This document shows, one piece after another, positions 3,158-56,922 of a stretch of DNA of 64,000 nucleotides. How positions within the stretch are numbered: position 1 is the first letter of the stretch; each line of letters begins with the position of its first letter. The notes under the pieces were generated by a model that worked only from the letters and a program-made list of their open reading frames with translations, searched no databases and was not told the DNA's origin. Where the stretch lies: positions 16,801-80,800 of the forward strand of contig CAWCLV010000009.1 of NCBI GenBank assembly GCA_963796485.1, given 5' to 3'. Source of the DNA: Bryobacterales bacterium. Lineage in GTDB: Bacteria > Acidobacteriota > Terriglobia > Bryobacterales > Bryobacteraceae. Position numbers and translations under genes: made by a program.

Positions 3158-3555
3158 TTGGCGCCCCCGGTGTTGGCCTTGAAGTCGGAGTGGCAGTCCC
3201 AACAAGGGATTGAAACAGCTTCGTAGTTGTGGCAGCGGTCGCAAAACTCGGCCCTGCCGGCGGTATGGCACTGTTCGAGACACGTCGAAGTGAGGCTCAT
3301 GTTGTAGCGCTGCCCGTTGAACGCCGTGAACTCGCGCCCTCCCTGCCGGACGACCTGCTCCCTCCAGTCGAGCAACAACTTCATGTGCGACGACTTCATG
3401 TAGGCCACGGGCGCCACACACTGCCGCGCACCGGCGGGCAGCACCGGGTTCGGCCCCTTGGGCGTAACCGCCGCGGAGAGGTTGTGCCAGAGCGGGAACG
3501 TGGCGAACACAAGGAAGATCGCCAAGGCCGTCCAGATAATGCCGCGATCACGCAT
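3154..3555 (-). CDS. dsrJ: DsrJ, membrane-anchored triheme cytochrome c
   Basis: 133 aa with an N-terminal hydrophobic anchor and exactly three CxxCH motifs (CLEQCH, CDRCH, CWDCH). Confidence 0.85.
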
Positions 3556-24505: not shown

Positions 24506-25414
24506 ATGGGCGCAACTGCCGATATCACCGGATCTCCCCTTGACCCGTCGCAAAGGTGCTCCTTGAGCACAAGGGTAACTGCCTCACAGGACAGCGGGAC
24601 CGCGCTTCTGATCTCGCGGGGAACCATGTCCGGGGCTGCGCTGATCGCCGAATGCCTCTCCCGCAGAAGCGGTGTACGCTGCGTCACCAGAGAGCACCTG
24701 GCATCCGCCATCAACAGCTACGGCGGCCTGGCAACGCGAATCGCGGAACAGATTCGCCGCGCCGATCACGCGTACGACCAGTTCAGCCATATCCGCCGGC
24801 CTTACCTGATTTTGATGCGGCGCGCGCTGCTCGAATACGCGCGAGCGGGCGGACTGGCGTACTTCGGCTACTCGGGGCACCTGCTCGTTCCCAGAATTCC
24901 GCACTTTGCGCGCATCCGGCTGATCGCCCCCCTCGAAGTGCGCGTCGCCCGTACGCGGCAGTCGTTGGGCTATTCCGAAGAGCAAGCCAGAGAGTATATC
25001 CGCGACCTGGACGCAGAGCGCGCGCACTGGGCGCGCCTGATGTACGGCATCGATATCCGGCAGCCTTCCGGATACGACTTTTGCGTCAATCTGGAACGGC
25101 TGACGCTCCCGGGCGCCTGCGATCTGCTGGTGAACATTCGCGAGCAGCCCGAATTCCAACCCACGCCGGCCTCCGTCGCGCAGGTCGAGAGCGAGTACCT
25201 CGCCACGCAGGTGCTGGCCGCGCTGGCGCTCGATCCGGAGACTCTCTCGATCGAACTTGCCGCAACCGCCGCGGACGGAGCGGTACGCCTGGTGGGCCCG
25301 TATCTCCCCGGCGCCGCCCTGGAGCAGGCGCTTTCGGTGGCCCGAGCCGTCCCGGGAGTCCGCCAGGTGGAGTATGAACCAGGTTATACACCAGCCTTCA
25401 GTTATGCATCCTGA
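24506..25414 (+). CDS. Cytidylate-kinase-like/BON protein (paralog 2, N-terminally extended)
   Basis: Start placed at MGATADITG so that the conserved ALLISRGTMSGAALIAECLSRRSGVRCV block is retained. It aligns by eye with paralogs 1 and 3 over the full length (RIRLIAPLEVRV, VNLERLTL). Start is uncertain. Confidence 0.65.
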   Translation: MGATADITGSPLDPSQRCSLSTRVTASQDSGTALLISRGTMSGAALIAECLSRRSGVRCVTREHLASAINSYGGLATRIAEQIRRADHAYDQFSHIRRPYLILMRRALLEYARAGGLAYFGYSGHLLVPRIPHFARIRLIAPLEVRVARTRQSLGYSEEQAREYIRDLDAERAHWARLMYGIDIRQPSGYDFCVNLERLTLPGACDLLVNIREQPEFQPTPASVAQVESEYLATQVLAALALDPETLSIELAATAADGAVRLVGPYLPGAALEQALSVARAVPGVRQVEYEPGYTPAFSYAS

Positions 25415-25459
25415 TCGGACGCGATATCCCCCGAAATCCAAAGTGAAGGGAAACGATTT

Positions 25460-26218
25460 ATGCCAGAACTGCACACTGCCGGCCGGACCGGCATCTTTTC
25501 GCTGCTTACGCGGCTGACTGAACTGGAACAGGCGCAATCCGAGGCCATGTTCGAACAGAGTGCGCTGGCACGGGACAGGACACGGACCACGTCGGACCTG
25601 GCACTCTACTCCGCCAAAACGGCCGAGAATGCGGTCACCCAGACCAGCCTCGCCAAGGAGCGAACCGGCCTCACGAGGGAACAGACCAGGCTCTCCACGC
25701 GGAGCAGCGAGCTCGCTTCGATCCGAACCGAGTTTGCGCGCGAACGGACCGGCTACGCGGAAGAGCGCACCCGCCTCGCCACGCAGCGCACCGAGATGGC
25801 GGCCAGGAGGGTGAAGTTGGCCGAGGCACGGAACGAACTTGCCGAGCGCCGCACGACGCTTTCCCGGGAACGCAGCTCCCTGGCCGGCGTTCGCACCGGC
25901 CTGTCTCATCGCCGCACCGTGACGGCGCTCACGAGGACGCGCCTGTCTTTCCAGCGGACGGAACTCGCGCGGGGCCGAACGGCGCTCGCCCTCATCCGCA
26001 CCGGACTTTCGTTCCTGACGCTGGGCGTGACGTTTCTCCGGTACTTCGGACTGTCGCGGTGGACGCCCTTCGATATAGCCCTGATCCTCTCCAGTCTGGT
26101 GGCGGTCTGGTTCGGAGCCCGCGGCTATCGCCGGGCAGCCGCCGCCGAGAAACTGGTGCAACGGGTGCTGGGCAGGGACAAGGGGATGGATGAGGTGCTC
26201 GCCGAGACCGTAGGCTGA
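25460..26218 (+). CDS. DUF202/YidH-like membrane protein with a long heptad-repeat N-terminal region
   Basis: 252 aa. ERTxLA-type motifs repeat many times, followed by two C-terminal TM helices (LSFLTLGVTFLRYFGL; IALILSSLVAVWFGA). Confidence 0.65.
   Translation: MPELHTAGRTGIFSLLTRLTELEQAQSEAMFEQSALARDRTRTTSDLALYSAKTAENAVTQTSLAKERTGLTREQTRLSTRSSELASIRTEFARERTGYAEERTRLATQRTEMAARRVKLAEARNELAERRTTLSRERSSLAGVRTGLSHRRTVTALTRTRLSFQRTELARGRTALALIRTGLSFLTLGVTFLRYFGLSRWTPFDIALILSSLVAVWFGARGYRRAAAAEKLVQRVLGRDKGMDEVLAETVG
25577..26017 (+). repeat. 21 in-register heptads of [R/Q][T/S]xLxxx (coding, 21-nt periodicity)
   Basis: Residues 40-186 parse without register breaks: RTGLTRE/QTRLSTR/SSELASI/RTEFARE/RTGYAEE/RTRLATQ/.../RTALALI/RTGLSFL. 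Thirteen heptads start with RT. Confidence 0.8.
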
Positions 26219-26276: not shown

Positions 26277-26296
26277 CACTCGATAACGTATTTTGA

Positions 26297-26320
26297 GGTC
26301 TGATGATCCGGCATCGGACC
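26297..26320 (+). promoter_or_regulatory. Conserved 5'-leader hairpin (copy B)
   Basis: GGTCTGATG-ATCCGG-CATCGGACC. It has the same loop and upper stem as copy A. The lower stem differs but still pairs, with one G-U. Confidence 0.5.
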
Positions 26321-26346
26321 GAGTTCCGGGAGGACGGGGCGAAATA

Positions 26347-27324
26347 ATGTCGGTCTTTTTACCGATTGCCGGAGTCAGCATCAATCTCTGGATCCTGGTC
26401 GGAGCCGGGGCGCTTGTGGGCTTCCTCTCCGGTCTCCTGGGTGTGGGCGGCGGGTTCCTGCTCACTCCCATTCTGATGCTGGTAGGCATCCCTCCCACCG
26501 TCGCCGCAGCCTCCGACTCCTGTCAGATCGTGGCCGCCTCTTCGTCCGCGGTAGCCGCTCACTTCCGCCTCGGGAACGTGGATTTCAAGATGGGCCTGAC
26601 CCTGCTCTCCGGAGGCTTGGTCGGCGCGGGCATCGGTGTCGAACTGATCAAAGTACTGCGCTCGATCGGGAACGCCGACTCGCTGATCACCATCACGTAC
26701 ATTCTGGTGTTGGGGGCGGTGGGCGGCTCCATGTTCGTCGCCAGCCTGAAAAATCTCCGGCGCGGACCGATGGAGTCCAGGGAGCGCAAGAAGGCCCCTT
26801 CCGCGGGGATCCTGCGACGCCTGCCCCTCCAGGCGTATTTCCCGCGATCGAATGTCCATCACTCCCTTCTGGTGCCGTTCGCGCTGTGCATCATGGTGGG
26901 CATCCTGGCATCCATCATGGGCGTCGGCGGCGCTTTTATGATGGTGCCGATGATGGTGTACGTGCTCGGCATGCCGGCGCACGTAGCGGTCGGCACGTCG
27001 CTGTTTCAAACGCTGTTCACCTGTGCGGGCGTGACCTACATGCAGTCCGCCACCAACCACACGGTGGATCTTGTGCTCGCGCTCCTGCTTGCCGCCGGTT
27101 CCACGATCGGCGCGCAGGCGGGTGCGCGCCTGACCAAATTCCTGCGGGGCGACCAGTTGCTCATTATCCTGGCCACCCTGGCACTTGTGGTCGTGGTCAA
27201 AATGCTGGTGGGCGTCCTGGTGGCACCGTCGAACCTGCTCAGTCCCGCCGCGCATGCCGCGCTGGACTGGCATTCCCTTCCCGCTTGGGGCGGGCAGATC
27301 TGGAGGATTGTCGTCAATGTGTAG
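26347..27324 (+). CDS. TauE/SafE-family anion (sulfite/sulfonate-type) permease, copy 1
   Basis: Start placed at MSVFLPIAG. The LLGVGGGFLLTPILM motif repeats internally as IMGVGGAFMMVPMM, and the protein has about 8 TM helices. Confidence 0.75.
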   Translation: MSVFLPIAGVSINLWILVGAGALVGFLSGLLGVGGGFLLTPILMLVGIPPTVAAASDSCQIVAASSSAVAAHFRLGNVDFKMGLTLLSGGLVGAGIGVELIKVLRSIGNADSLITITYILVLGAVGGSMFVASLKNLRRGPMESRERKKAPSAGILRRLPLQAYFPRSNVHHSLLVPFALCIMVGILASIMGVGGAFMMVPMMVYVLGMPAHVAVGTSLFQTLFTCAGVTYMQSATNHTVDLVLALLLAAGSTIGAQAGARLTKFLRGDQLLIILATLALVVVVKMLVGVLVAPSNLLSPAAHAALDWHSLPAWGGQIWRIVVNV

Positions 27325-27616: not shown

Positions 27617-28684
27617 ATGGATTCTCTTTATCTGCTGATGCCGATCGCGGGCACCTACATCTTCTGGCCGGGCCTGGTTGTGCTCGGACTGGGGGTCGGG
27701 ATGATCAGCGGGTTTTTCGGAATGGGCGGCGGGTGGATGGTCACTCCGGGGCTGAATATTCTCGGCTTCCCGATGGCATTTTCCATCGGCACGGGAGTCA
27801 CCCAGATGGCCGGCCCCTCCCTGGTTTCGTCTCTCCGCCACGCGAAGTTCGGAAATGTCGATTACAAGCTCGGCTTGATCATGGTCGGCGGTACCGTGGC
27901 CGGTTTTGAGCCGGGAGCGCGGCTGGTGATGTGGCTCGAGCGCTATGGCCGGGTTGACCAATACGTGCAATACGGCTACCTCGTGCTCCTCTCGCTCATC
28001 GCCTGGCTGGTCTTCACCGACATCCATCGAAAAAATTCGAAAGAGCGGGAGGCGCGCGCGCTCGGCCGGCCGGCGGAGGAGATTTCGGCGGGCATCGAGT
28101 GGCATAAAGCCCTGCAAAAGATCCGGATTCCTCCCATCGTTTATTTCCCGAAAGCCGGTGTGCGCTGCTCTGTCTGGCTTCCTGTGTCCGTCAGCTTCGT
28201 GACGGGTTTGATGGCGGGCGTCTTTGGAATTGGAGGCGGGCTGATCCGCATGCCTGCGCTGATCTATCTGGTCGGGCTCCCCACCCACGTCGCGGTTGGC
28301 ACCGACCTGTTCGAAGTGACCATTTCCGGCCTGTACGGGGCCGCCTCGTACAGCTACAAGGGCCGCACGGAATTGCTGGCCGCCGTGATCATGCTGGTCG
28401 GCGCGTGCGTCGGGGCGCAGATCGGCGCCGTCACTACCAAGTACGTCAAAGGCTACGGGATCCGGCTCTTTTTCGGAATCGCGGTAATCGGGTGCGCGGT
28501 ATCGATTGTGATGAAGCTGATCGCCGCGGCGTATCCATCCGCCGCCCGTTACCTGAATCCCGCCGCCGCGACACTGATCCTGGGACTGGTGGGAGCACTG
28601 TCACTTTATATTTTTATCCGGTTCCTTCGCGGCGTGTCGGAAGAGCGCGCCGCACGGAAGCATATGGCCCATGCGGCGGATTAA
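27617..28684 (+). CDS. TauE/SafE-family permease, copy 2, with a ~60-aa charged central loop
   Basis: Motifs FFGMGGGWMVTPGL and VFGIGGGLIRMPAL, with a central HRKNSKEREARALGRPAEEISAG insert. Confidence 0.75.
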   Translation: MDSLYLLMPIAGTYIFWPGLVVLGLGVGMISGFFGMGGGWMVTPGLNILGFPMAFSIGTGVTQMAGPSLVSSLRHAKFGNVDYKLGLIMVGGTVAGFEPGARLVMWLERYGRVDQYVQYGYLVLLSLIAWLVFTDIHRKNSKEREARALGRPAEEISAGIEWHKALQKIRIPPIVYFPKAGVRCSVWLPVSVSFVTGLMAGVFGIGGGLIRMPALIYLVGLPTHVAVGTDLFEVTISGLYGAASYSYKGRTELLAAVIMLVGACVGAQIGAVTTKYVKGYGIRLFFGIAVIGCAVSIVMKLIAAAYPSAARYLNPAAATLILGLVGALSLYIFIRFLRGVSEERAARKHMAHAAD

Positions 28685-30087: not shown

Positions 30088-32640
30088 ATGCGGTGGTGGC
30101 GGCACAAAGTCGGCGCGGCTCTTGAAACACCGGTCGAGGCGGTGGGCCGGGTTCGCGCCAAGTACGTCACTTTCCGGGGACTGCTCACTGCCAACAACGA
30201 GTCCCTGGAGCTCATGGCTGGGCTGCAGGAAGATCTGCAGTACGTCCCGCCCAGGCGCGACGTACTCGGAGACCGCATCGCGGTGATCTTCGGCCGCATC
30301 GGGGAAGTCGTCACGGCGCTCGAACAGCTGACCGGAATGCGTCATGCCGCGCTCACCTCCGCGCTGCAGGCACAGCAGCTCGAGATCGAGCGCTACGCCG
30401 CCGCACTCGAAGAGTTGCGCCGGCCCCGTCTTTCCGCCTGGCTTTCCGAAGTCAACGCCGCGTCGGAAGAAGACGTCGGCAGCAAAGCTTCCATGCTGGG
30501 CGAAATCCGGAACAAACTCGGCCTGCCCGTACCGGACGGCTTCGTGCTCACCACCGAAGCCTACCGCCAGGTGTGCGGCATCCCGATCTGGCAGGAGATT
30601 CGCGATGCCACCCGCGATCTGGACCTGAACGATCTCGAAGCCGTCGGGCGCGCGTCCGAGGGGCTCACGGCGAAAGCGCTGGAGTGCCCTCTCCCGCGCG
30701 CCGTCGAGGTCGCCATTACCGGACGTACCGATGCGCTGCTCAAGCATGGAGGAGCCCTCGCGGTGCGCTCCAGCGCCAAGGGCGAGGGAGGAGCGAAGTC
30801 CTACGCCGGTCAGTTTCTGAGTCTCTTGAACGTGCCGCGGGAGAAGTCCCTCGATGCCTACCGCCGCGTGATTGCGGCGCGCTTCGCGGAACGCGCGCTC
30901 TATTACCGTCTCTCGAACGGCCTGCTGGAAGTGGATAACCCGATGGCGGTCCTGTTTCTGCCCGTGATCTCCGCGCGCGCTTCGGGGATTATGTACACTC
31001 GCGATCCGAACGACGCGAAGTGCCCGCATGTCTGGATCACCTCGACGCGCGGGCTGGGTCTCGAAATCGCGAGCGGGCGGATCCCGGCGGACCTGTTCCT
31101 GGTGACCCGCTCCAGGCCGCATACCGTGGCGCAGCGGAATATCGTCCACAAAGAGGCCTCGCTGGTTCTGGAAGAGGGCGAAGGCGTGGCTTCCGTCCCC
31201 GTTCCCCCGGGGGCACAAGACGCGCCGAGCCTTCAGGAGGGCACGCTGCACACCCTGGCGGAATGGGCCGTCCGCCTGGAAGATTATTTTCACGCGCCGC
31301 AGGATGTCGAGTGGGTCCTCGGCGAGGATAGCCGGCTCTGGGTCGTACAATCAAGGCCCCTGGCGAGCGCCGATGCGGCACACGTCAAGCCGAGGTCCCG
31401 GCCGAAAGCCGGCCCACGGCTGGAAGGCGGGCGTACCATCTATCCGGGACAAACGTCAGGACCGGCTTTCCTGGCGGATGACATTCCGAGCATCGCCAAA
31501 GCGCCTTCCGGTTCCGTGGTCTTCATCCGCAAGCCATCGCCCGAAATCGTCGAAATTTTTCCGCGGATCGCCGGGCTCGTGGCCGAATGGGGCAACGTCA
31601 CCGGCCACGCGGCGGCTCTGCTGCGCGAATTCCAGATTCCTTCGGTCTTCCTGATGCCGGGGGTATTCGAGAAGCTGAGCGACGGCGAGCCGGTCAGCCT
31701 GGATGCCGTCGGAAGCCGTATCTACAGCGGTATCCTCTGGCCGGCCAGCCGGCGGGAACAGGCGCTCCCGGAGCGCTACGCCCAGCGCAAGGGAGATCCC
31801 ATCGCCCAGCGGCTGCTTACGCTCACCCTGCTCGACCCTTCGGCACACAACTTCCGTCCCGCGGGCTGCCAGTCGGGGCACGACGTCCTGCGCTACTGCC
31901 ACGAGAAGGCGATCGAAGCCATGTTCGAGATCAACGACTATGCACTCGAACACGGCATGAAGACCGCGCGCAAATTATCGACCGCGCTGCCGCTGAACTT
32001 CCTGGTGATGGATCTCGGTGGAGGGTTCGAGGCCGGCGAGAACGCGAGCCCGGAGATCGCCCCGGCCAAAATCATCTCCAGGCCATTCCAGGCCCTGTGG
32101 AAAGGGATTACGCACCCGGAGGTCACCTGGACGCGGGAAATGCCGGCGGCGATCGGCGACCTCGCTTCGGTGCTCGCGTCGTCGCTGACGCCTCAGAGTG
32201 GGGGCATTCGGCCGCTCGGCGACAGGAGCTACCTGCTGGTTGCGGACGAGTACATGAACCTGAACTCGCGCCTGGCCTACCACTACAGCCTGGTGGATGC
32301 GTGCATCTCGGATAACCCCAACGACAATTACATCTCGTTCCGTTTCGAAGGCGGCGGCGCCACGCGGCAACGGCGCAGCCTGCGTGCGTGCTTTCTCGAA
32401 AAGGTGCTCACCCGGTACGGGTTCAAGGTAGACCGCCGCACAGACCTGGTAAATGCGTGGTTTCGAAAAGCCCCCGCCGAACAGACTGCCGAACGCCTCG
32501 ATATCCTGGGCCGCCTGCTGGCGTGCTCGAGCCAGCTTGACATGTACATGACCAGCCGGGAAGTCATGGGCTGGTACGTAGACCAGTTTCTCAAAGGCAA
32601 CTACTCCTTCCTCAATTCGCAGGCAAGCGCCGGTTTATAA
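30088..32640 (+). CDS. PEP-utilizing-enzyme-like phosphotransferase (PPDK_N ATP-grasp plus phosphohistidine swivel) with non-canonical N- and C-terminal regions
   Basis: VGSKASMLGEIRNKLGLPVPDGFVLTTEAY marks the start of PPDK_N. The swivel motif is GNVTGHAAALLREFQIPSV (His codon 31606-31608). I cannot match the last ~290 aa to the PEP/pyruvate TIM barrel. Confidence 0.7.
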   Translation: MRWWRHKVGAALETPVEAVGRVRAKYVTFRGLLTANNESLELMAGLQEDLQYVPPRRDVLGDRIAVIFGRIGEVVTALEQLTGMRHAALTSALQAQQLEIERYAAALEELRRPRLSAWLSEVNAASEEDVGSKASMLGEIRNKLGLPVPDGFVLTTEAYRQVCGIPIWQEIRDATRDLDLNDLEAVGRASEGLTAKALECPLPRAVEVAITGRTDALLKHGGALAVRSSAKGEGGAKSYAGQFLSLLNVPREKSLDAYRRVIAARFAERALYYRLSNGLLEVDNPMAVLFLPVISARASGIMYTRDPNDAKCPHVWITSTRGLGLEIASGRIPADLFLVTRSRPHTVAQRNIVHKEASLVLEEGEGVASVPVPPGAQDAPSLQEGTLHTLAEWAVRLEDYFHAPQDVEWVLGEDSRLWVVQSRPLASADAAHVKPRSRPKAGPRLEGGRTIYPGQTSGPAFLADDIPSIAKAPSGSVVFIRKPSPEIVEIFPRIAGLVAEWGNVTGHAAALLREFQIPSVFLMPGVFEKLSDGEPVSLDAVGSRIYSGILWPASRREQALPERYAQRKGDPIAQRLLTLTLLDPSAHNFRPAGCQSGHDVLRYCHEKAIEAMFEINDYALEHGMKTARKLSTALPLNFLVMDLGGGFEAGENASPEIAPAKIISRPFQALWKGITHPEVTWTREMPAAIGDLASVLASSLTPQSGGIRPLGDRSYLLVADEYMNLNSRLAYHYSLVDACISDNPNDNYISFRFEGGGATRQRRSLRACFLEKVLTRYGFKVDRRTDLVNAWFRKAPAEQTAERLDILGRLLACSSQLDMYMTSREVMGWYVDQFLKGNYSFLNSQASAGL

Positions 32641-33184: not shown

Positions 33185-34555
33185 GTGCCCCGCCTGGTCG
33201 TCGCCGGACTTTCGGGGGAGTCGGGCAAGACTCTCGTCTCACTGGCGATGTTGTTGGAACTGCGGCGCCGGGGTCTGCCTGTGCGCGCATTCAAGAAGGG
33301 GCCTGACTACATCGATGCTTCCTGGCTCGAGTGGGCCACGAACAAGCCGGTGCGCAATCTCGACACCTATCTCATGGGATTCGATCGCGTCTCCGGTTCT
33401 TTCGCATGGCACGCCGTACCTGCCGGCCTGAACCTGGTCGAAGGGAACCGCGGGCTGTTCGATGGTCTCGATGCGCGCGGCACCCACAGCACGGCGGAAC
33501 TCGCCAAGTCTCTGCAGGCGCCCGTGGTCCTGGTGGTGAACGCAACCAAGATCACGCGCACGGCCGCGGCCCTGGTGCTCGGATGCCAGAAGCTGGACCC
33601 GGCGTTGTGGATTGCCGGCGTGATCGTAAACCAGGTGGCGGGGGCGCGGCACGCCCGTATCGTGCGGGAAGCCATCGAATCCACCTGCTTGATCCCGGTG
33701 CTGGGAGTCGTGCCACGCGCTCAACCCGGCGCGTTTCCGCCGACCCGCCACCTTGGCCTGGTCACTCCGGACGAATACACCGGCCGGGAGGTGCTCGCGT
33801 GCCATCTGCTCGACCTGGTAGTTCCCCACCTCGACGTGGACAGACTGCTGAAAATAGCCCGGGATGCGCCACCCCTGCCCACGCCGGCGTTGGAATCCGA
33901 TGGCGGCTCGGAGGGACGCGGCCTGACAATCGGCTACCTGCACGACAGCGCATTCTGCTTCTACTATCCGGAAAACTTCGATGCGCTGAGGGCGTCCGGG
34001 GCGCGGCTGGTTCCCGTCTCCGCGCTCTCAGACGTGGAGTTGCCGGCTGAGTTGGATGCGCTTTACATCGGGGGCGGATTCCCGGAAACGCACGCGCACG
34101 CACTGTCGGCCAACTCGCGGTTTCTCGCATCGGTGCGAGCCCGCGCCCTCGCCGGGCTGCCGGTCTATGCCGAGTGCGGGGGCCTGATGTTCCTCTCCCG
34201 CTCCATGCTCTGGCAGGGGACGCGGTACCCCATGGCCGGGGTTCTGCCGTTCGATGTCGAAGTGGAGGCGGCGCCCCAGGGCCACGGCTATATCGAATTG
34301 GAAGTGGACCGTCCGAATCCCTTCTTTGAGGCGGGCACGCGACTCCGCGGCCACGAGTTCCACTATTCGCGCATCGTTCTCGAAGGCGCCCCCCCGGCGA
34401 CGGCTTGCGCCGTGCTTCGCGGCACTGGATGCTTCTCCGGGCGTGACGCCGTGGTGTCGCACAACGTGTGGGCGTCCTATGCGCATCTGCATGCCCTGGC
34501 TACGCCGGAATGGGCGCGCGGATTTCTGCGGGCCGCCCGGGTCAGTGTCGCGTAA
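33185..34555 (+). CDS. dsrN: DsrN (CbiA/CobB-type a,c-diamide synthase; siroheme amidation)
   Basis: 456 aa with N-terminal VVAGLSGESGKT (ATP-binding) and a C-terminal glutamine amidotransferase part (YAECGGLMFL, GHEFHYS). Confidence 0.8.
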   Translation: MPRLVVAGLSGESGKTLVSLAMLLELRRRGLPVRAFKKGPDYIDASWLEWATNKPVRNLDTYLMGFDRVSGSFAWHAVPAGLNLVEGNRGLFDGLDARGTHSTAELAKSLQAPVVLVVNATKITRTAAALVLGCQKLDPALWIAGVIVNQVAGARHARIVREAIESTCLIPVLGVVPRAQPGAFPPTRHLGLVTPDEYTGREVLACHLLDLVVPHLDVDRLLKIARDAPPLPTPALESDGGSEGRGLTIGYLHDSAFCFYYPENFDALRASGARLVPVSALSDVELPAELDALYIGGGFPETHAHALSANSRFLASVRARALAGLPVYAECGGLMFLSRSMLWQGTRYPMAGVLPFDVEVEAAPQGHGYIELEVDRPNPFFEAGTRLRGHEFHYSRIVLEGAPPATACAVLRGTGCFSGRDAVVSHNVWASYAHLHALATPEWARGFLRAARVSVA

Positions 34556-35527: not shown

Positions 35528-35556
35528 GTGACTTTTTGCAATTCCCGCTCTATTAT
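35528..35556 (+). promoter_or_regulatory. Candidate sigma70 promoter for sat
   Basis: GTGACT, 17 nt, TATTAT, about 68 nt upstream of the sat ATG. AGGAGG lies 7 nt before the ATG. Pattern match only. Confidence 0.35.
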
Positions 35557-35623: not shown

Positions 35624-36889
35624 ATGAGTAATCTGATTCTTCCGCATGGGGGTGGAGACCTGCTTCCCCTCCTGCTCGATGACGAGGCCAGGCGGGAAGA
35701 ACTCCGCAAAGCCGAACACCTTAAAAAAGTACCGATGACCAGCCGCGAAACCAGCGATCTGATCATGATGGGAATCGGCGCATTCACCCCGCTCCGCGGG
35801 TTCATGGGCCGCGACGATTGGCACGGCTGTTGTGACTCCTACCGGATGGTGAGCCGGCCCGGGCTCTTCTGGCCCATCCCGATCACCCTCTCGGCGGAAG
35901 AGGACTACACCAAATCGATCGCGATCAATGAGGAAGTGGCCCTCTGGGATACCGAAACCGAAGCGATCATGGGGACCATGCGGGTTACCGAAAAATACAA
36001 GATCGACAAAGACTACGAGTGCAAGCAGATCTTCCGCACCACGGATCCCGCCCACCCCGGTGTGCAAAAAGTGATGGAGCAGGGTTGTGTAAATCTGGCG
36101 GGACCCGCAAAGGTCCTCTCCGAGTCGTACTACCCCGAGATGTTCCCCGGCATCTACCAGCGCCCGGCCGAAGCCCGCAAACAGTTTGCGGAAAGAGGCT
36201 GGTCCACGGTCGCCGCCTTGCAGCTTCGCAATCCGATGCACAACTCGCACGCTTATCTTGCGTGGACCGCAATCGAGGTCTGCGACGGCGTCTATATCCA
36301 TCAACTCGTGGGCAAACTCAAACCGGGCGATATCCCCGCCGAGGTACGGGTGAAAGCCATCGACGCGCTGGTGAACAAGTACTTCCGCCGCGACCGCGTG
36401 ATTCAAGGCGGATATCCGATGGAGATGCGGTACGCCGGCCCTCGCGAGGCCCTGCTGCACGCCCTCTTCCGCCAGAACTACGGCTGCACGCACCTGATCG
36501 TAGGACGCGACCACGCCGGAGTCGGCGACTATTACGGGCCGTTCGACGCGCAGAAGATCTTCAACGAAATTCCGGCCGGCGCCCTGCTTCTACAGCCGCT
36601 CTGCATGGACTGGACGTTCTACTGCTACCAGTGCGGAAGCATGGCCTCCATGAAGACCTGCCCGCACGAGAGCAAGGCCGTCATCGACGAGAACGGGAAC
36701 TACAAGGGCGGCGCGCGCCTGCTGCTTTCCGGAACGCTGTTGCGCAAACTGATGAGCGAGGGCAAGCCGGTTCCGGCGGAGTTCTCGAAACCCGAAGTCA
36801 TCGCGATTCTGAAGGAGTACTACGACAGCCTCGAAGAGAAGGTCGAGGTCAAACTCCACGGCGCCGCGACTGGTGATACGAAACACTAA
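35624..36889 (+). CDS. sat: Sulfate adenylyltransferase (ATP sulfurylase)
   Basis: 421 aa with [13 protein letters not shown] and VGRDHAGVG motifs. Confidence 0.92.
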
Positions 36890-36904: not shown

Positions 36905-38368
36905 ATGGCGCTGATTCCGGTGCTGCCTCCTGAAATCCGGCGGGATCCCAAATCCCGCCGGCTCGCCACCGATGCGGAGTTGGAACGGGCCCTTGCCGTC
37001 GCAAAGAAACCGGGCACGGTGGAACGGCAGCGGCTTCCGGTGCGCTATCACGTGGAGGATTGCGCTCCCGGAGATCGCCCGCGCCGTTTCCTGGAGGCCT
37101 TCGCCGCCATACTCAAGCACACCCATTACCGCCTGGCGTTGGAACACTATATCCGAGTGAGCGCCAAGTGCGCCCGCTGCGCTACGCACTGCCAGGTGTA
37201 CATGGCCACCGGCGCTCCGCGCGACATCCCGTGCCACCGCAGCGAGCTTCTGCTCTCGGTATACCGCAGGCATTTCACCGTGGCGGGCGTGCTGCGCGGC
37301 CGGGTTCTCGGTGACCCGGGCCTTACCGATGAGAAGATCCGGGAAATGGCGGACGCTTTCTACAACTGCACCGCGTGCCGCCGCTGCACCCTGGAGTGTC
37401 CGATGGGGATCGACCACGGGCTCGTCACGCACCTCGGCCGCTACATACTCTCGGAAATCGGGATCGTCCCTCGCGGGCTGGCGGTAAGTGTCAGGGAGCA
37501 ACTCGCGGGCAAGTCGGGTAACACGTCCGCGGTTCCCGTTCCCGCCCTGCTCGATAGCCTCGAATTCCTCAGCGACGACATGAAAGAGCAGACCGGCAGA
37601 GACATCCCCTTTCCGATCGACAGGCAGGGCGCCGAGTACCTGTTCCTCGCTCCCGTATCCGACTACCTCATGGAAGCCGACACGCTCATGGGCTGCGCCG
37701 CGGTCTTTCGGGCAACCGGCGACTCCTGGACCATCGGCACCGGCTATTTCGACGCGATCAACTACGGGTTGTTCTACAACGATCAGGTGATGGAGCACGT
37801 GGCATGTAAAATCCGGGCCGAGGCCGAGAGGCTCCAGGTCAGGAAGCTCCTGATCGGCGAATGCGGCCACGCCTCCCGAACCGCCAAAGCCTTTTATCCC
37901 ACTTACTGCGGCGGCGCCGGCGCGCTTCCGGTGACCAGCATTCTCGAATACACGCACGCCGCATGGAAACAGGGGCGGCTCAAACTGAACCCGGCGGCGA
38001 TCGCCGAAAAGGTGACCTATCACGACCCCTGTAACTTCGCCCGCTCCGGATGGATCATCGACCAGCCCCGCGAACTGCTGCGCGCCTTCTGCAGCGACTT
38101 TGTCGAAATGACTCCCCGCGCCCGCCAGAACATTTGCTGCGGAGGAGGAGGGGGCACGGTCTCGATCGATGAAATCAAGCCATATCGCACGCTGGTGGGC
38201 GGGCGCGCCAAGGCCGAACAGATTCGCGCTACCGGCGCCAGGTACTGCGTCGCGCCATGCGCTAACTGCAAGAAGCAACTTCGCGAACTGGTAGAGGAAC
38301 ACAAGATTGATTGCCAGATTGTGGGTCTTCACGACCTTCTGTTCAAGGCAATCCGGTTTGAAGATTAG
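36905..38368 (+). CDS. HdrD/DsrK/HmcF-like Fe-S oxidoreductase with CCG domains
   Basis: 487 aa with CARCATHC, CTACRRCTLECP, HDPCNFAR and NICCGGGGG motifs. It starts 15 nt after sat. Confidence 0.8.
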   Translation: MALIPVLPPEIRRDPKSRRLATDAELERALAVAKKPGTVERQRLPVRYHVEDCAPGDRPRRFLEAFAAILKHTHYRLALEHYIRVSAKCARCATHCQVYMATGAPRDIPCHRSELLLSVYRRHFTVAGVLRGRVLGDPGLTDEKIREMADAFYNCTACRRCTLECPMGIDHGLVTHLGRYILSEIGIVPRGLAVSVREQLAGKSGNTSAVPVPALLDSLEFLSDDMKEQTGRDIPFPIDRQGAEYLFLAPVSDYLMEADTLMGCAAVFRATGDSWTIGTGYFDAINYGLFYNDQVMEHVACKIRAEAERLQVRKLLIGECGHASRTAKAFYPTYCGGAGALPVTSILEYTHAAWKQGRLKLNPAAIAEKVTYHDPCNFARSGWIIDQPRELLRAFCSDFVEMTPRARQNICCGGGGGTVSIDEIKPYRTLVGGRAKAEQIRATGARYCVAPCANCKKQLRELVEEHKIDCQIVGLHDLLFKAIRFED

Positions 38369-38488: not shown

Positions 38489-39238
38489 TTGGAGGGCTGG
38501 ATCGAATTCGGCCGGGGACCGCTGTTCCGGTTCGCGTTCGTGCTGATGCTGCTGGGGCTGGCACGCCTGTTGCTGCTTACGTTCATCGGGCTTTGGGAAG
38601 TCGCGCGAACCACTCCCAGCTCTTCCCTGCCGTGGCCGGACCTCGTCCGGAACACCTTCGGATGGCTGATCCCGGTGGGGCGGCTCTGGCGCCGGCGCCC
38701 GGTTTACAGCACGATCTCCTTCGCCTTCCACATCGGCCTTCTGCTCGTGCCGCTCACTCTCGCGGCACACGTACTGCTATGGAAGCGGGCCGTGGGTTTT
38801 GCGTGGCCCGCTATTCCCTATTCGCTGGCGAACTGGTTGACCGTGACCGTCATCTGCACGGGGCTGGTGCTGTTCCTGGCCAGGGCGCTGCACACGGGTA
38901 GCCGCAGCCTTAGCCGCGCGCAGGACTTCGCCTGGCCGCTCCTGCTGGTGACACCATTCCTGAGCGGCTACCTGTGCTCGAACGCGGCGTTGAGCCCACA
39001 GGCGTACCGCGGGTTCTTTCTGGTCCACATCTATTCGGCCGACGTGGTCCTGCTGCTGATTCCTTTCACCAAGATCGCCCACTGCGTCCTGGCGCCGCTC
39101 TCGCAGCTGGTGAGTGCGATGAGTTGGAAACTGACTCCGGGCGCAGGCGATCGAGTCGAAGAAACGCTGGGCTACGCGGACCGGCCTACCTGGATCGAGG
39201 GCTCTCGCCTCGCGGAGCCGGTGCGCAAGGAGGCATGA
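38489..39238 (+). CDS. NarI/DsrM/HmcE-like cytochrome b membrane subunit
   Basis: TTG start with AGGAGG 4 nt upstream. The product has 5-6 TM helices, and FLVHIYSADVVLLLIPFTKIAHCV parallels FFVHLMLVCTLAAYLPFSKLVHLG of the DsrM in this window. Confidence 0.7.
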   Translation: MEGWIEFGRGPLFRFAFVLMLLGLARLLLLTFIGLWEVARTTPSSSLPWPDLVRNTFGWLIPVGRLWRRRPVYSTISFAFHIGLLLVPLTLAAHVLLWKRAVGFAWPAIPYSLANWLTVTVICTGLVLFLARALHTGSRSLSRAQDFAWPLLLVTPFLSGYLCSNAALSPQAYRGFFLVHIYSADVVLLLIPFTKIAHCVLAPLSQLVSAMSWKLTPGAGDRVEETLGYADRPTWIEGSRLAEPVRKEA

Positions 39239-39999
39239 TGCAAACCGCAATCCTCAACGATACAACGAAGTGCATCGGCTGCAACGAATGCGCGCTGGCC
39301 TGCCACAAAGCGAATCACCTGGCGGCCGATGAGCCCCGAAGATGGGACTTGGACGACGGCCTGTCCGCCCGCAACTGGACATCGGTGATCGAGCCCGCGC
39401 CCGGGAAGTACGTCCGCAAACAATGCCGGCACTGCCTGGAACCGGCCTGCGCCTCCGCCTGCCCCGTCGGCGCGCTCACGCGGACCGCGATGGGTCCGGT
39501 GGTCTACGATTCTTCGAAATGCATGGGATGCCGCTACTGCATGATGGCCTGTCCCTTCGGCATCCCGCGCTACTCCTGGGCCGAGCCGGTGCCCTACGTG
39601 CGCAAGTGCATTCTCTGCTACGACCGCTTGCGCGAGGGAGAGAAGCCCGCCTGCACGGAGGCATGCCCGGCGAAAGCGACGATCTTCGGCGATCGCCGGG
39701 AGTTGCTCGCGGAAGCGCATCGGCGCCTTCGGGAGCAACCGGACCGGTATGTGCAGAAAGTCTGGGGCGAGCAGGAAATTGGCGGCACCTCCGTGCTCTA
39801 CCTCTCCGATCTCGATCTGTCGTTCCTCACCGGAAACCGTTCCCTCGGCATGGAGCCGCTTCCCGAACGCACCAGCCTGGCCATGGAGGCCGTACCGTTC
39901 ACATTTGCGGGCGTGCTGGCGGGTCTTGCCGGCCTGAGCTGGATCATCCGGCGGAGAATCAAGCTGGCCGAGATCCCGGAGGAGCCGCACCGTGACTAG
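39235..39999 (+). CDS. 4x[4Fe-4S] ferredoxin-like subunit (DsrO/HmcB/HybA type) with C-terminal TM helix and no obvious signal peptide
   Basis: Start MMQTAILNDTTKCIGCNECALAC overlaps the upstream stop (ATGA). Further motifs are CRHCLEPACASACP, CMGCRYCMMACP and CILCYDRL...CTEACP. The C-terminal helix is FTFAGVLAGLAGLSWII. Confidence 0.8.
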   Translation: MMQTAILNDTTKCIGCNECALACHKANHLAADEPRRWDLDDGLSARNWTSVIEPAPGKYVRKQCRHCLEPACASACPVGALTRTAMGPVVYDSSKCMGCRYCMMACPFGIPRYSWAEPVPYVRKCILCYDRLREGEKPACTEACPAKATIFGDRRELLAEAHRRLREQPDRYVQKVWGEQEIGGTSVLYLSDLDLSFLTGNRSLGMEPLPERTSLAMEAVPFTFAGVLAGLAGLSWIIRRRIKLAEIPEEPHRD

Positions 40000-41830
40000 A
40001 GTCAGGCGGTTCAAGCTCCTGTTATGGATCCTGGCGGGGCTGGCGACGGCGGTAGCCTGTTCGCGGTTCGTGTTCGGCCTCGGCGCCACCACCAATCTGA
40101 CCGACGCCACTCCCTGGGGCATCTGGATCGGCTTCGACGTGATGAGCGGCGTCGCTCTAGCCGCCGGCGGCTTCATCGTGACCGCGACGGTCTATGTCTT
40201 CCGGCTGGATCGATTCCACACCATCGTCCGGCCGGCCGTGCTGACCGCCTTCCTCGGATACGCGGCGGTTGCGGCAGGCCTGTTATTCGACCTCGGCCTG
40301 CCTTGGAACATCTGGCACATGATCGTGTTCTGGAACCCGCACTCCGCGCTCTTCGAAGTGGGCTGGTGCGTGATGCTGTACCTGACCGTGCTGGCGCTCG
40401 AATTCTTCCCCGTGCCGGCCGAGGAGTTTCGCGCCCTGGCGCGCGTGCGCACGTTCCTGCTGCGGTTTCGCTTTCCGCTGGTGCTCATCGGAATCGGCCT
40501 CTCCACGCTGCACCAGTCTTCACTCGGCTCGCTTTACCTGATCATGCCCTACCGGCTGCACCCTCTCTGGTACACGCCCCTGCTTCCCGTGTTATTCCTG
40601 ACGTCGGCGATCGGCCTGGGCCTGATGATGGTAATCGCCGAGAGTCACTTTACGGCGTACCTCTACCGGAGGCAGCCAGAGACGCCGCTCCTGGAGCGAC
40701 TGGGCGCGGCTGCACGGTGGGTGCTTCTGTTCTACGCCGTATTGCGCTTTGGCGATTTGGCCGGCCGCGGCCGCGTTGCCGAACTGGCGGGAGCCGGATG
40801 GCAGGTCAAGCTGTTCTGGGTGGAACTGGCCATGATGGCGCTCGGCCCGGCAATCCTGCTCTCCGTGCCGCGCGTGCGTGCTTCCCGTGCGGGGCAGTGG
40901 ACGGCGGCGATCATCGGCATCTGCGGCGTGATCCTGAACCGCATCGATGTGGGCGGACTGGCCCATCAGCGGCAGACGCCGCTATACCTCCCTTCCTGGA
41001 CCGAGATCGCGATCAGCGCCGGGGTGGTTGCCGGGGGCGTGCTTGCGTTCCTCTTCTTCATCGAGCATTTCCGGATCTGGGAGGAACGTCCCGTCGATCC
41101 TCAAGCCGACCCCTCGAACTTACCGGAGTTCGACCCCGTGGGAATGACGTGGCTGGGTATTCCGGGCGTCGCGGGACGAACCGTCTACTCCCTGGGATTC
41201 ATCGTGGCAGCCGCCGCGGGGTTCGCCCTCCTGGCCCCACAGCCCGCCGCCAGCCGCGGAATCGAGAAGACCGCGGCCCACCGCGCGCGCGGCGCGGAGA
41301 TCCTCTGGATCGATGGCAACCTGAACGGCCGCGGCGTGTCCTTTCCGCACCAGAAGCACATCGATTCGCAAGGCGGCAAGCTCTCCTGCCCGCGCTGTCA
41401 TCATATGAACCTCCCGCGCGATCAGGCCAGCGGCTGCTATCAATGCCATCGCGATATGTATACCGCCAGCGACGCGTTCGGGCACGACTGGCACGCCGCA
41501 CCCCACGGCGGCAAGCTGGCTTGCGGCCAGTGCCATCCGCCGGACCAGCCTCGTACCGCCTTGACCAGCAAGCCATGTACGGCCTGCCACAAGGACCTGA
41601 TCCCGCCCCAAGCCCCGTACCGAATTGCCGGTTACAACGCCCGAAGCTATGCGGATTCCATGCATGGGCTCTGCATCGGCTGTCACCGGCAGGAGGCCGT
41701 AAAGCGGAACAAGCCCGACATGCCGCGTTGCGCGTGGTGCCATAAAGAGTCGCGAACTTTCGTAGACGGCGCGGCACTGGCGCAGGCCGGCGAGCCCGCG
41801 CGCACGAACGTTGTTTTGCCGCCCTGGTAG
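39992..41830 (+). CDS. NrfD/DsrP/HmcC-like membrane subunit fused to a C-terminal six-heme class-III-like cytochrome c
   Basis: GTG start overlapping the upstream stop. About 430 aa are polytopic membrane domain. The tail has FPHQKH plus six CxxCH motifs (CPRCH, CYQCH, CGQCH, CTACH, CIGCH, CAWCH) between 41387 and 41742. Confidence 0.8.
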   Translation: MTRVRRFKLLLWILAGLATAVACSRFVFGLGATTNLTDATPWGIWIGFDVMSGVALAAGGFIVTATVYVFRLDRFHTIVRPAVLTAFLGYAAVAAGLLFDLGLPWNIWHMIVFWNPHSALFEVGWCVMLYLTVLALEFFPVPAEEFRALARVRTFLLRFRFPLVLIGIGLSTLHQSSLGSLYLIMPYRLHPLWYTPLLPVLFLTSAIGLGLMMVIAESHFTAYLYRRQPETPLLERLGAAARWVLLFYAVLRFGDLAGRGRVAELAGAGWQVKLFWVELAMMALGPAILLSVPRVRASRAGQWTAAIIGICGVILNRIDVGGLAHQRQTPLYLPSWTEIAISAGVVAGGVLAFLFFIEHFRIWEERPVDPQADPSNLPEFDPVGMTWLGIPGVAGRTVYSLGFIVAAAAGFALLAPQPAASRGIEKTAAHRARGAEILWIDGNLNGRGVSFPHQKHIDSQGGKLSCPRCHHMNLPRDQASGCYQCHRDMYTASDAFGHDWHAAPHGGKLACGQCHPPDQPRTALTSKPCTACHKDLIPPQAPYRIAGYNARSYADSMHGLCIGCHRQEAVKRNKPDMPRCAWCHKESRTFVDGAALAQAGEPARTNVVLPPW

Positions 41831-41844
41831 CGGGAGGGAGAACC

Positions 41845-42843
41845 ATGCCGAATTTGTTCAGCGCCCTCGCGGAGCAGGCCTGCGGCGCCAAACGTTGCGA
41901 GGACGCAATCCACGCGCTCGAAAGCGACTTGCAGCGTCAGCCCTCGGACGCGCTCGCCTGCTACGAACTCGGGCTATGCTATAGCGGCGGCTGCCATTCT
42001 CACTCGCTGGTCTCTCCGGAAATGGCGGTTGCGTACCTGCGCCGGGCGCTCTGCCTGACCAACGATACCGGACTCCTGCGCGCCTACATCCTGGAAGCCC
42101 TGGGCAACACGCTCGCTGGTGAAACAAACTCCCGAAATGCGGACGCGCTATGCGAAGCGATCGCCTGCCACTCTCAAGCCGCCGACCTATACCGCGCCGC
42201 CGGAAAGTCTGCCGATCGCGCCCGGGCGCAGTTCAACCTGGGCAACTCTTGTTGCGAACTGTCCGAGGCAACCGGGGAAAACCACTGGCGGGAAGCGATC
42301 GGCCATTATGAGGATGCCCTGGCGGTCCGCACTCCCGGGAAAGACCCGGCAGGACGCGCTGCCGTACTCGAGAACCTCGGGACGGCTTACCGCCAGCTTC
42401 GCGGCAGCTATGTGGAAAAGGCAGTCGGCTGTTATCGGCGGGCGCTCCGGTTGTGTTCTCCAACCGGGAGCCCTGCCCGTTATGCGGCTCTTCAAAACAA
42501 TCTCGGCAATGCCCTCCTTTCCCTCCCGGTCACCGATGAAACAACGGCCTGCAGGAATGCACGGCGGGCGCTCCGCCGCTTCAACTGCGCCCTGAATGTT
42601 CTCTCCCCCGATCCCCCCGGCTGCAGCTACGGCATTACTCAGTGCAACAGGGGGCAGGCCTATCGCCGGCTGTCCCGTGGACGGGACCGGCAAGCCGCCC
42701 TCGCCGCGAAATGCCTGAAGGACGCGTACGCCGTCTTTGTCTCATGCGGCGAACAGCAATACGCCGAAGTAGCGAAAGAACAGCTGAATCAACTTCGCGG
42801 CGGCGCGTGCGAACATGAAGATCGTCATGCAAATCGCTCCTGA
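41845..42843 (+). CDS. TPR-like repeat protein, Cys-rich
   Basis: 332 aa with recurring A-x-x-x-Y/L-x-x-A-L helical repeats (AVAYLRRAL, AIGHYEDAL, AVGCYRRAL). Confidence 0.6.
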   Translation: MPNLFSALAEQACGAKRCEDAIHALESDLQRQPSDALACYELGLCYSGGCHSHSLVSPEMAVAYLRRALCLTNDTGLLRAYILEALGNTLAGETNSRNADALCEAIACHSQAADLYRAAGKSADRARAQFNLGNSCCELSEATGENHWREAIGHYEDALAVRTPGKDPAGRAAVLENLGTAYRQLRGSYVEKAVGCYRRALRLCSPTGSPARYAALQNNLGNALLSLPVTDETTACRNARRALRRFNCALNVLSPDPPGCSYGITQCNRGQAYRRLSRGRDRQAALAAKCLKDAYAVFVSCGEQQYAEVAKEQLNQLRGGACEHEDRHANRS

Positions 42844-56900: not shown

Positions 56901-56922
56901 TGTTCTCTACAGGTTCGCATAC

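Follow-up and report, generated by a model that had tools for sequence, protein, structure and literature searches.

The locus and the fused gene

The stretch analysed here, referred to as the window (64,000 nucleotides (nt), positions 16,801 to 80,800 of the forward strand of contig CAWCLV010000009.1, assembly GCA_963796485.1, from a Bryobacterales bacterium), is a dissimilatory sulfur island in which canonical DsrMKJOP stands beside a second, Hmc-like module of four genes, K2-M2-O2-P2::cyt. The last of these genes, the target of the present analysis, joins an NrfD-type membrane subunit in frame to a six-heme, cytochrome c3-like domain within one open reading frame (ORF). Its parts, in amino acids (aa), are as follows; a slash marks the point of a signal-peptidase-like pattern.

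39992..41830, plus strand: the complete NrfD::cytochrome ORF, GTG start, 612 aa
39992..41077, plus strand: aa 1-362, ten-helix HmcC/HybB-type NrfD core (Pfam, NCBIfam, Foldseek)
41078..41179, plus strand: aa 363-396, linker placed in the cytoplasm (alignment, topology count)
41180..41239, plus strand: aa 397-416, transmembrane helix 11 (Kyte-Doolittle (KD) hydropathy peak 1.95; helix 397-413 in the AlphaFold2 (AF2) model)
41240..41341, plus strand: aa 417-450, periplasmic linker beginning PQPAAS/RG (alignments)
41342..41830, plus strand: aa 451-612 plus stop codon, hexaheme class III (c3-like) domain (CxxCH at aa 466-584) and C-terminal tail

The fusion had been proposed from the letters of the DNA alone (the original prediction), and it proves genuine, being kept in more than 120 homologs of equal length. 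The G+C content at third codon positions (GC3) of the ORF is 0.82, matching that of the real genes around it in the window. Pfam NrfD (PF03916) covers aa 35-318 at 66.2 bits (cut-off 25.8) and Cytochrom_CIII (PF02085) covers aa 495-584 at 47.9 bits (cut-off 22.9), while Cytochrome_C7 and Cytochrom_c3_2 also match above their curated cut-offs; by these profiles the protein belongs to both the NrfD family and the c3 family. The FPHQKH motif (aa 451-456) is followed by the six CxxCH motifs (aa 466, 482, 511, 529, 561 and 580; nt 41387-41729), which amounts to 22 residues per heme over aa 453-584 and bears out the very high heme density noticed earlier. All six frames of the window hold 11 CxxCH motifs, six of them in the target within 345 nt and two in dsrJ, and 20,000 shuffles of the target protein never gave more than 1 (mean 0.011), so that the six motifs are not due to chance. 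A fusion of this kind would presumably fix the stoichiometry of the two parts.

Membrane topology and the quinone site

Hydropathy resolves 11 hydrophobic segments in the target, ten of which precede residue 362. The NrfD-like part, first taken as about 430 aa, is corrected to ten helices spanning about 362 aa; next come a linker of about 35 aa and helix 11, the latter holding the extra hydrophobic helix already pointed out (SLGFIVAAAAGFALLAP, aa 400-416, within the KD peak of 1.95). With helices counted from hydropathy together with AF2 secondary structure, lysines and arginines in the loops number 18 on the cytoplasmic side vs 8 outside, four of the latter falling among the initial 30 residues of the large exported domain and the other four in short outer loops; the means over 52 homologs are 20.3 inside vs 7.2 outside. 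The N-terminus is predicted to lie inside, the core to end inside, and helix 11 to carry the cytochrome domain into the periplasm. Because the number of spans is odd and the N-terminus is inside, the heme domain would be periplasmic, the only side on which c-type heme attachment is possible. The original prediction had likewise looked to the extra helix to bring the C-terminus outside and had set the hemes at the periplasmic face, and both expectations agree with the hydropathy and charge counts. The N-terminal RVRRFK was considered as a twin-arginine signal and rejected, the RR pair not being conserved in close homologs.

The AF2 model of the target has a predicted local distance difference test (pLDDT) score of 64 overall and of about 60-95 in the membrane part. 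Its best Foldseek matches are ActC (6lod_C, 8k9e_C, 6f0k_C), then ActF and PsrC (2vpw_C), all at probability 1.0 and with TM-scores on the target of 0.53-0.64. ActC is given in the consulted text of PMC8076601 as a ten-helix NrfD-type subunit with its two termini on the N-side. The model and the segment count thus fit the ten-helix subtype of the NrfD/PsrC family, in which two four-helix bundles form an eight-helix core and two further helices flank it. Among NCBIfam models, the core scores 294 bits against HmcC (NF045714; cut-off 550) and 275 bits against HybB (NF008133; cut-off 450); judged by these scores, the target is related to HmcC and HybB and is the equivalog of neither, nor of DsrP.

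Alignment to Escherichia coli HybB gives 32% identity over 342 aa, and the residues of HybB tabulated as proposed quinone site, proton path and gating arginine (the part of PMC8076601 used being its Table 2) can be read across. In the quinone site, target D49, D100, S118, E122 and S180 correspond to HybB D58, D109, S129, E133 and S190, so that five of six residues are kept and the sole mismatch is G96 for HybB S105. In the N-side proton path, H174, S176 and S177 correspond to H184, S186 and S187, and the gating arginine R329 of HybB is R317 in the target. All of the matching residues are invariant in the 52 close homologs. As the site residues of HybB are kept, the core has features expected of a quinone-interacting NrfD subunit.

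The heme domain

Six histidines outside the CxxCH motifs (453, 456, 471, 498, 501 and 558) are conserved across 26 distant hexaheme sequences, enough to supply distal ligands for bis-His coordination at all six hemes, and the hemes are probably so ligated. In the 52 close homologs, H453, H471, H498, H501, H558 and M489 are invariant, and some of these homologs have another residue in place of H456. The alignment of hemes 3-6 with tetraheme cytochrome c3 1czj is weak (E 0.03). The calculated mass of the target is 67.2 kDa, or about 71 kDa with six hemes.

Conservation and distribution of the fusion

Among 5.8 billion clustered proteins, the search recovered more than 120 homologs of the target at 63-88% identity, all of 602-641 aa and all with both domains. 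Where named, the close homologs come from Bryobacteraceae, Candidatus Sulfopaludibacter, Korobacteraceae and Binataceae; the exact target protein is absent from the public records searched, the closest being from a Bryobacterales metagenome-assembled genome (MAG) at 88% identity. The homologs carry automatic names such as 'Ni/Fe-hydrogenase cytochrome b subunit', 'HybB-like' and 'NrfD/PsrC family', and the architecture is plentiful in public sequence data under these misleading labels.

An exhaustive HMMER scan of 1.84 billion representatives of 50%-identity clusters gave 2611 matches, the best 150 of which were examined. At least two CxxCH motifs (range 2-14) after a hydrophobic segment at about 377-421 occur in 70 of these 150, exactly six in 43, and the other fusions have 3, 4, 10, 12, 13 or 14; nearly all full-length fused representatives show the hydrophobic peak at about 377-421 preceding the first CxxCH. 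The six motifs are invariant both in the alignment of 52 close homologs and in the 26 distant hexaheme sequences. In addition, about 30 of the best 80 loci (L001-L080) from one-genome-per-species contigs are fusions, all of them in MAGs. The carriers are Bryobacterales, Calditrichota, Zixibacteria, Ignavibacteria/Melioribacteraceae, Thermodesulfobacteriota, Planctomycetota, Holophagales/Thermoanaerobaculia, KSB1, Latescibacterota, Myxococcales and Riflebacteria, so that the same architecture, which had been proposed as something to look for in other genomes, is found in about ten phyla. A rough neighbour-joining tree of the NrfD core, to be taken as indicative only, gathers most hexaheme fusions in one clade and disperses those with other heme numbers among unfused relatives, and the dispersal hints at several independent fusion events.

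These data bear directly on the objection that a stop codon lost or a frameshift introduced in assembly has joined two genes. Nothing beyond the general possibility speaks for such an artefact. Against it stand the equal architecture and length of more than 120 independent homologs and about 30 loci from different studies, and the linker between the domains is itself conserved in close homologs (W363, R366, P367, D369, P378, W387, L388, G389, P391 and R396), while being variable in distant hexaheme fusions. The comparative data leave a sequencing or assembly artefact virtually inconceivable, and they indicate that the fusion is real and under selection.

The four-gene module

The target is preceded by sat, K2, M2 and O2 and is followed, after a gap of 14 nt, by a TPR gene.

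35624..36889, plus strand: sat, sulfate adenylyltransferase (Pfam ATP-sulfurylase and PUA_2; NCBIfam NF003166 467 bits, cut-off 387)
36905..38368, plus strand: K2, cytoplasmic DsrK/HmcF/HdrD-like Fe-S protein (NCBIfam; Pfam CCG, Fer4_8)
38489..39238, plus strand: M2, HmcE/TmcC-like (NarI-type) membrane subunit (NCBIfam HmcE 127 bits, TmcC 116 bits)
39235..39999, plus strand: O2, HmcB/HybA-like 4x[4Fe-4S] protein (NCBIfam HmcB 245 bits, HybA 199 bits)
41845-42843: TPR gene

The genes are closely packed, with gaps of 15 nt between sat and K2 and 120 nt between K2 and M2, and overlaps of 4 nt between M2 and O2 and 8 nt between O2 and the target. A weak sigma-70-like promoter site lies upstream of sat (35528-35556), and no convincing terminator was found within the cluster from sat to the target; sat is probably the first gene of the transcription unit of the module.

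K2 scores best against DsrK (294 bits, cut-off 400), followed by TmcB (198) and HmcF (196, cut-off 750), and is 34% identical to the window's own DsrK. Its sequence contains DPC...CCGGGGG...CAPCANC and CTACRRCTLEC, with an intact CCG signature of the form C-x34-CC-x36-C-xx-C. M2 falls below the cut-off of both HmcE (127 bits vs 275) and TmcC, has histidines at 81, 94, 135, 180 and 198, and shows no real similarity to the window's DsrM; it is presumed to bind two b-type hemes. O2 matches HmcB at 245 bits against a cut-off of 420, covering profile positions 34-290 only, and ends in a membrane helix followed by an RRRIK tail. As this PsrB-type 4x[4Fe-4S] partner adjoins the target and the O2-NrfD pairing is kept in all loci examined, and as at least 14 loci of several phyla share the order K2-M2-O2-P2cyt, the target is best read as one subunit of a four-protein, Hmc/Dsr-like electron-transfer module.

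A peculiarity of the module is the absence of an export signal in O2. Its N-terminus (MMQTAILNDTTKCIGC) carries no signal peptide and begins 11 residues before the first cluster motif, and E. coli HybA aligns to it from HybA residue 39 only, residues 1-38 having no counterpart. The signal peptide is absent in every fused locus examined and in about 45 unfused relatives, all of which still keep the C-terminal anchor and basic tail. No upstream extension or alternative start supplying a twin-arginine translocation (Tat) signal for O2 was found, some loci having a stop codon just upstream, whereas the window's canonical DsrO has a Tat-like N-terminus. Clustering of ORFs in the flanks of 31 fused loci revealed no conserved carrier of a Tat signal and no conserved cytochrome gene, only regulators, a NifX-like protein and M54 peptidases. 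A C-terminal helix with a basic tail marks the Tat-dependent, tail-anchored HybA/HmcB type in the account of PMC10924467, and O2 has the anchor of that type and lacks its twin-arginine signal. The sole signal-less relative described in the consulted text of that source is believed there to be carried along by a Tat-exported FeFe hydrogenase (PMC10924467). Either the carrier of O2 is encoded elsewhere or O2 sits somewhere unexpected.

Proposed electron path and alternative readings

In the DsrMKJOP complex, according to the consulted portion of the cryo-EM preprint 10.64898/2026.08.25.746951, quinol is proposed to be oxidised at DsrP and electrons to pass on to DsrO, DsrJ, DsrM and DsrK, DsrJ contacting DsrM and helping to form a lipid-exposed menaquinone site. 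For each part of DsrMKJOP the module has an equivalent, those of DsrJ and DsrP being fused to one another, and on this ground the target is proposed to be the quinone-interacting NrfD-type (HmcC/HybB) subunit of a four-subunit transmembrane redox complex K2-M2-O2-P2::cyt, a proposal that seems reasonably probable. The ten-helix core would end in the cytoplasm, helix 11 would return the chain across the membrane, and the apo-cytochrome domain would be exported and receive six covalent hemes on the periplasmic side. Menaquinol would be oxidised at the P2 site, with electrons passing from P2 to the iron-sulfur clusters of O2 and on to the six tethered hemes, then crossing the membrane via the hemes of M2 to the non-cubane CCG cluster of K2. 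K2 may in turn reduce a cytoplasmic disulfide or trisulfide, the DsrC-trisulfide being the most plausible in this organism. Helix 11 would act as the anchor helix of DsrJ does, at the interface between the membrane subunits, and the mature protein would stay in one piece.

Several observations weigh against this proposal. The AF2 model is only moderate, with poor confidence in helix 11 and in the heme domain, the latter being no surprise for a model that lacks the hemes, so that no conclusion can be drawn on the packing of helix 11. All NCBIfam matches to HmcB, HmcC, HmcE, HmcF, DsrK and HybB lie below the equivalog cut-offs, so that the names of these families do not license a transfer of function. 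O2 lacks a signal peptide and its route to the periplasmic face of P2 is unexplained, which makes its export the weakest link in the proposed electron path. Most loci outside Bryobacterales have sigma-54 and two-component regulators at their flanks rather than sulfur genes, and since canonical DsrMKJOP is also encoded in the window, a DsrC-linked role of the module would be redundant or specialised. In a search for expression data no RNA runs were found, and one DNA run held 6% of the sampled words. Lastly, an A-x-S/G pattern that fits signal peptidase I is conserved after helix 11, so that the mature protein could consist of two pieces.

This last point leads to a polyprotein, in which helix 11 would be an internal, cleavable signal peptide and signal peptidase I would cut after S421. 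The products would be an 11-helix NrfD protein of about 46 kDa and a soluble periplasmic hexaheme cytochrome of about 21 kDa plus hemes, and the gene fusion would only couple synthesis and export; the cytochrome b-c1 precursor encoded by fbcH of Bradyrhizobium is an example of such a polyprotein. The sequence after helix 11 (LLAPQPAAS/RG) has a canonical-looking c-region with the -3/-1 pattern, Pro at -6 and -4, Ala at -3 and Ser at -1, and a small -1 residue (S/G/T) with mostly A/V/L/I at -3 recurs in close and distant homologs, while the remainder of the linker is variable, differing in length with inserts of about 40 aa in distant homologs. On the other hand, the hydrophobic stretch of about 18 residues exceeds that of typical cleaved signals, and helix 11 is conserved in close homologs (S400 and F403 invariant; Y399, A406, A407 and G410 at 90% or more), which, together with the conserved linker before it, is unusual for a disposable signal. 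Moreover, a similar signal-peptidase-like pattern, HNLSAA/V, follows the anchor helix of the window's DsrJ, and the signal peptide of DsrJ is retained as an anchor. DsrJ contributes to the lipid-exposed, membrane-level menaquinone site of the solved complex (10.64898/2026.08.25.746951, in the part consulted). Cleavage into two proteins thus appears rather unlikely.

The same complex may also run in the opposite direction or in a branched manner, the tethered hemes being the entry for periplasmic electrons from a hydrogenase, a formate dehydrogenase or soluble c3-type cytochromes, which would go to menaquinone at P2 (Qrc-like) and/or through M2 to K2 (Hmc/Tmc-like); in a sulfur-oxidising mode the hemes would be the exit to periplasmic acceptors. 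The subunits score best against those of Hmc, which is implicated in electron transport from hydrogen to sulfate in the relevant passage of PMC10924467, the Planctomycetota versions are followed by a 23-heme cytochrome (L017) that suggests onward periplasmic transfer, and the host lineage carries DsrL, with reverse operation of the pathway proposed in the consulted part of PMC6018796. No gene for a hydrogenase, formate dehydrogenase or soluble cytochrome is conserved beside the module, and direction is unreadable from sequence; such operation is possible but doubtful. That the database label should be right, and the target be the membrane cytochrome b subunit (HybB) of a [NiFe] hydrogenase, is very improbable. 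The names of the homologs and the identity to E. coli HybB favour it, but the HybB model is matched well below its cut-off, a scan of 47 unfused relatives showed no hydrogenase large-subunit signature beside them, the surroundings of the fused loci have no conserved hydrogenase-like family, the neighbours are HmcF/E/B-like, and HybB itself is without a cytochrome c domain. A hydrogenase subunit was accordingly rejected on gene context and sub-cut-off scores, as were Hmc or DsrMKJOP proper on equivalog cut-offs and missing subunits.

A bolder interpretation of the proposed K2-M2-O2-P2::cyt complex, offered tentatively and held to be doubtful, is that it represents a distinct, unnamed complex of the Hmc/Tmc/Dsr group in at least ten mostly uncultured phyla, marked by a cytochrome that stays tethered to the cofactor-less NrfD subunit and by a signal-less FeS subunit. 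Were this so, the signal-less subunit would imply an unrecognised Tat carrier or an unorthodox NrfD-type arrangement, and sulfate-reducing Acidobacteriota, in which the module would be co-transcribed with sat, would possess a second, dedicated link between the menaquinone pool or periplasmic partners and cytoplasmic DsrC-type chemistry, which could bear on the proposed reversibility of the acidobacterial sulfur pathway.

The sulfur island and other gene neighbourhoods

The other sulfur genes of the window are as follows.

1232-2428, minus strand: dsrP
about 2438-3163, minus strand: dsrO
about 3150-3540, minus strand: dsrJ
3548-5158, minus strand: dsrK
5162-6157, minus strand: dsrM
6990-8651, minus strand: dsrL-like gene
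10208-11395, minus strand: NIR_SIR gene for a DsrA/B-type sulfite reductase
11404-12471, minus strand: qmoC-like gene
12473-14617, minus strand: qmoB
14601-15938, minus strand: qmoA
17002-18933, minus strand: aprA
33185-34555: dsrN

In the window's DsrJ the first heme motif, CLEQCH, has three residues separating its cysteines; CDRCH and CWDCH come after it. Two adjacent, tandem membrane proteins of the TauE/SafE family (sulfite exporter-type) are encoded at 26293-27324 and 27617-28684. A 565-aa protein (20339-22036, minus strand) joins a TP_methylase (SUMT-like) domain to an O-methyltransferase dimerisation domain; a relationship with the dsrWa-type siroheme genes found in acidobacterial MAGs is possible. 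An 850-aa protein (30088-32640) has PPDK_N and PEP-utilizers mobile domains, and Pfam reports no C-terminal PEP-utilizers TIM-barrel domain in it. Two further ORFs, 24584-26161 (minus strand, 525 aa) and 56185-58023 (612 aa), have no Pfam match at E <= 1e-5 and a rather low GC3 of 0.66-0.69; their coding status is uncertain.

Acidobacterial MAGs in the consulted part of Hausmann et al. (PMC6018796) resemble the window and carry 'dsrM2/dsrK2' paralogs directly after sat, which probably correspond to M2 and K2; the two genes downstream of dsrM2/dsrK2 are not discussed in that part of the source. The module follows sat and lies near dsrN both in the window and in the Bryobacterales loci L016 and L021, stands after dsrMKJOP in L002, and is near a fragment of a DsrA/B-like (NIR_SIR) gene in L013.

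In loci outside Acidobacteriota (L004-L015 and L023), a conserved protein of about 260-290 aa often stands before the module (e.g. L009 3892-4767; L014 4266-5036), with a NifX/Nitro_FeMo-Co domain and a Cys-rich C-terminus (CPxCGK...CCGAH), and the flanks contain a sigma-54 activator, a PAS histidine kinase and response regulators. The 23-CxxCH cytochrome of Planctomycetota, of about 888 aa, is encoded after the fused gene (L017 9857-12523; same place in L018-L020), and no K2 homolog was detected upstream of the fused gene in these four loci. The unfused relatives (L027-L080, 45-50% identity) are mostly from Acidobacteriota, Bacteroidota and Ignavibacteria and form a different conserved unit of a signal-less FeS protein, an NrfD-type protein, a HAMP histidine kinase, a sigma-54 response regulator and an M54 (archaemetzincin-like) peptidase (e.g. 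L062 7201-12840). Most of these loci, L062 included, have no adjoining gene for a cytochrome or a catalytic subunit; in L039 and L047 a 13-heme cytochrome gene lies upstream.

Significance

An NrfD-cytochrome c fusion is undescribed in the consulted portions of the literature on NrfD, Tat tail anchors, acidobacterial sulfate reducers, DsrMKJOP, cable bacteria, multiheme cytochromes and Dsr evolution, a coverage that does not extend to the genomic survey of Pereira et al. 2011. Conserved and solid, the architecture is probably unreported and is built from familiar modules. NrfD-type subunits are the common quinone-coupling, and possibly ion-translocating, element of many anaerobic respiratory complexes. 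Those described so far operate with redox partners that are separate proteins, and a natural fusion fixes which cytochrome partners which NrfD protein. Structure searches returned no solved Hmc-like complex, and a single heme-stainable membrane protein offers a handle for purifying and solving one. The module occurs widely in lineages of soil, peat and sediment (Acidobacteriota, Zixibacteria, Calditrichota, Ignavibacteria and Planctomycetota) whose energy metabolism is known from genomes only, and mislabelling of the fusion as hydrogenase or polysulfide reductase can distort metabolic reconstructions. With its place behind sat, in an organism that has both DsrMKJOP and DsrL, the module is a candidate to account for the flexibility, as yet unexplained, of sulfur metabolism in Acidobacteriota, and the signal-less FeS partner raises a concrete question of Tat hitchhiking.

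Comparison with known systems

The NrfD-type subunit and the cytochrome are separate polypeptides in the Dsr, Hmc and NrfD-type complexes described in the consulted parts of PMC8076601, PMC10924467 and the preprint 10.64898/2026.08.25.746951, as the original prediction had stated for Dsr, Hmc and Nrf systems. The closest likeness is to Hmc (HmcABCDEF) of Desulfovibrio/Nitratidesulfovibrio vulgaris, whose HmcC, HmcB and HmcE are the best-scoring models for three of the four subunits (the core, O2 and M2, respectively). HmcF also matches K2, though K2 scores higher against DsrK. The logic is shared as well: each combines a periplasmic multiheme cytochrome c and a tail-anchored FeS protein with two membrane subunits, one of the cofactor-less NrfD type and the other a NarI-type b subunit, and with a CCG protein in the cytoplasm (PMC10924467, in the portion used). 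In contrast to Hmc, the module has neither the 16-heme HmcA nor HmcD, its homologs of HmcB, HmcC, HmcE and HmcF stay below cut-off (245/420, 294/550, 127/275 and 196/750 bits), and O2 is without HmcB profile positions 1-33. Moreover, the cytochrome has six hemes and is fused to the HmcC-like core through an extra helix, and the gene order is F-E-B-C::cyt vs A-B-C-D-E-F.

With DsrMKJOP the module shares five parts, namely a CCG protein, a heme-bearing membrane subunit, an anchored multiheme cytochrome c, a 4x[4Fe-4S] protein and an NrfD-type subunit, and helix 11 with its cytochrome mimics DsrJ (anchor helix and heme domain). However, identities are low (K2 34% to DsrK, O2 34% to DsrO, P2 26% to DsrP), M2 is not DsrM-like, and the equivalog scores are 294/400 for DsrK, 111/200 for DsrO and 32/350 for DsrP. 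The cytochrome of the module is a hexaheme of c3 type with six conserved, probably distal histidines, whereas DsrJ is a triheme protein with His/Cys ligation; in addition, the J-equivalent is fused to P, and O2 lacks a signal peptide. Hydrogenase-2 of E. coli resembles the module through HybB (32% over 342 aa) and HybA (36% to O2, C-terminal anchor included), but no hydrogenase is present here.

Modules of FeS protein, HybB-like quinol oxidase and octaheme cytochrome, as presented in the consulted part of PMC10924467, are arranged in the order FeS, quinol oxidase, cytochrome c, which is the arrangement needed for loss of a stop codon to create the fusion. Their cytochrome is separate and their FeS protein has a Tat signal, whereas here the cytochrome is fused and the signal absent. 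Alternative complex III contains the closest solved fold, the ten-helix ActC (TM-score 0.57-0.61 on the target), and is likewise a quinol:cytochrome c module built on an NrfD-type subunit; it differs in its identity of only 16-19%, in its separate ActA and ActE, and in having no CCG protein and no b-heme subunit. CbcL of Geobacter, as described in the consulted part of PMC9129911, provides a precedent, uniting a quinol-oxidising membrane domain and a periplasmic, multiheme, bis-His c domain in one polypeptide. Its membrane domain is a six-helix di-heme b cytochrome and not a cofactor-less NrfD-type protein, and its nine hemes are carried by an N-terminal domain that follows a normal signal peptide, which makes an extra helix unnecessary.

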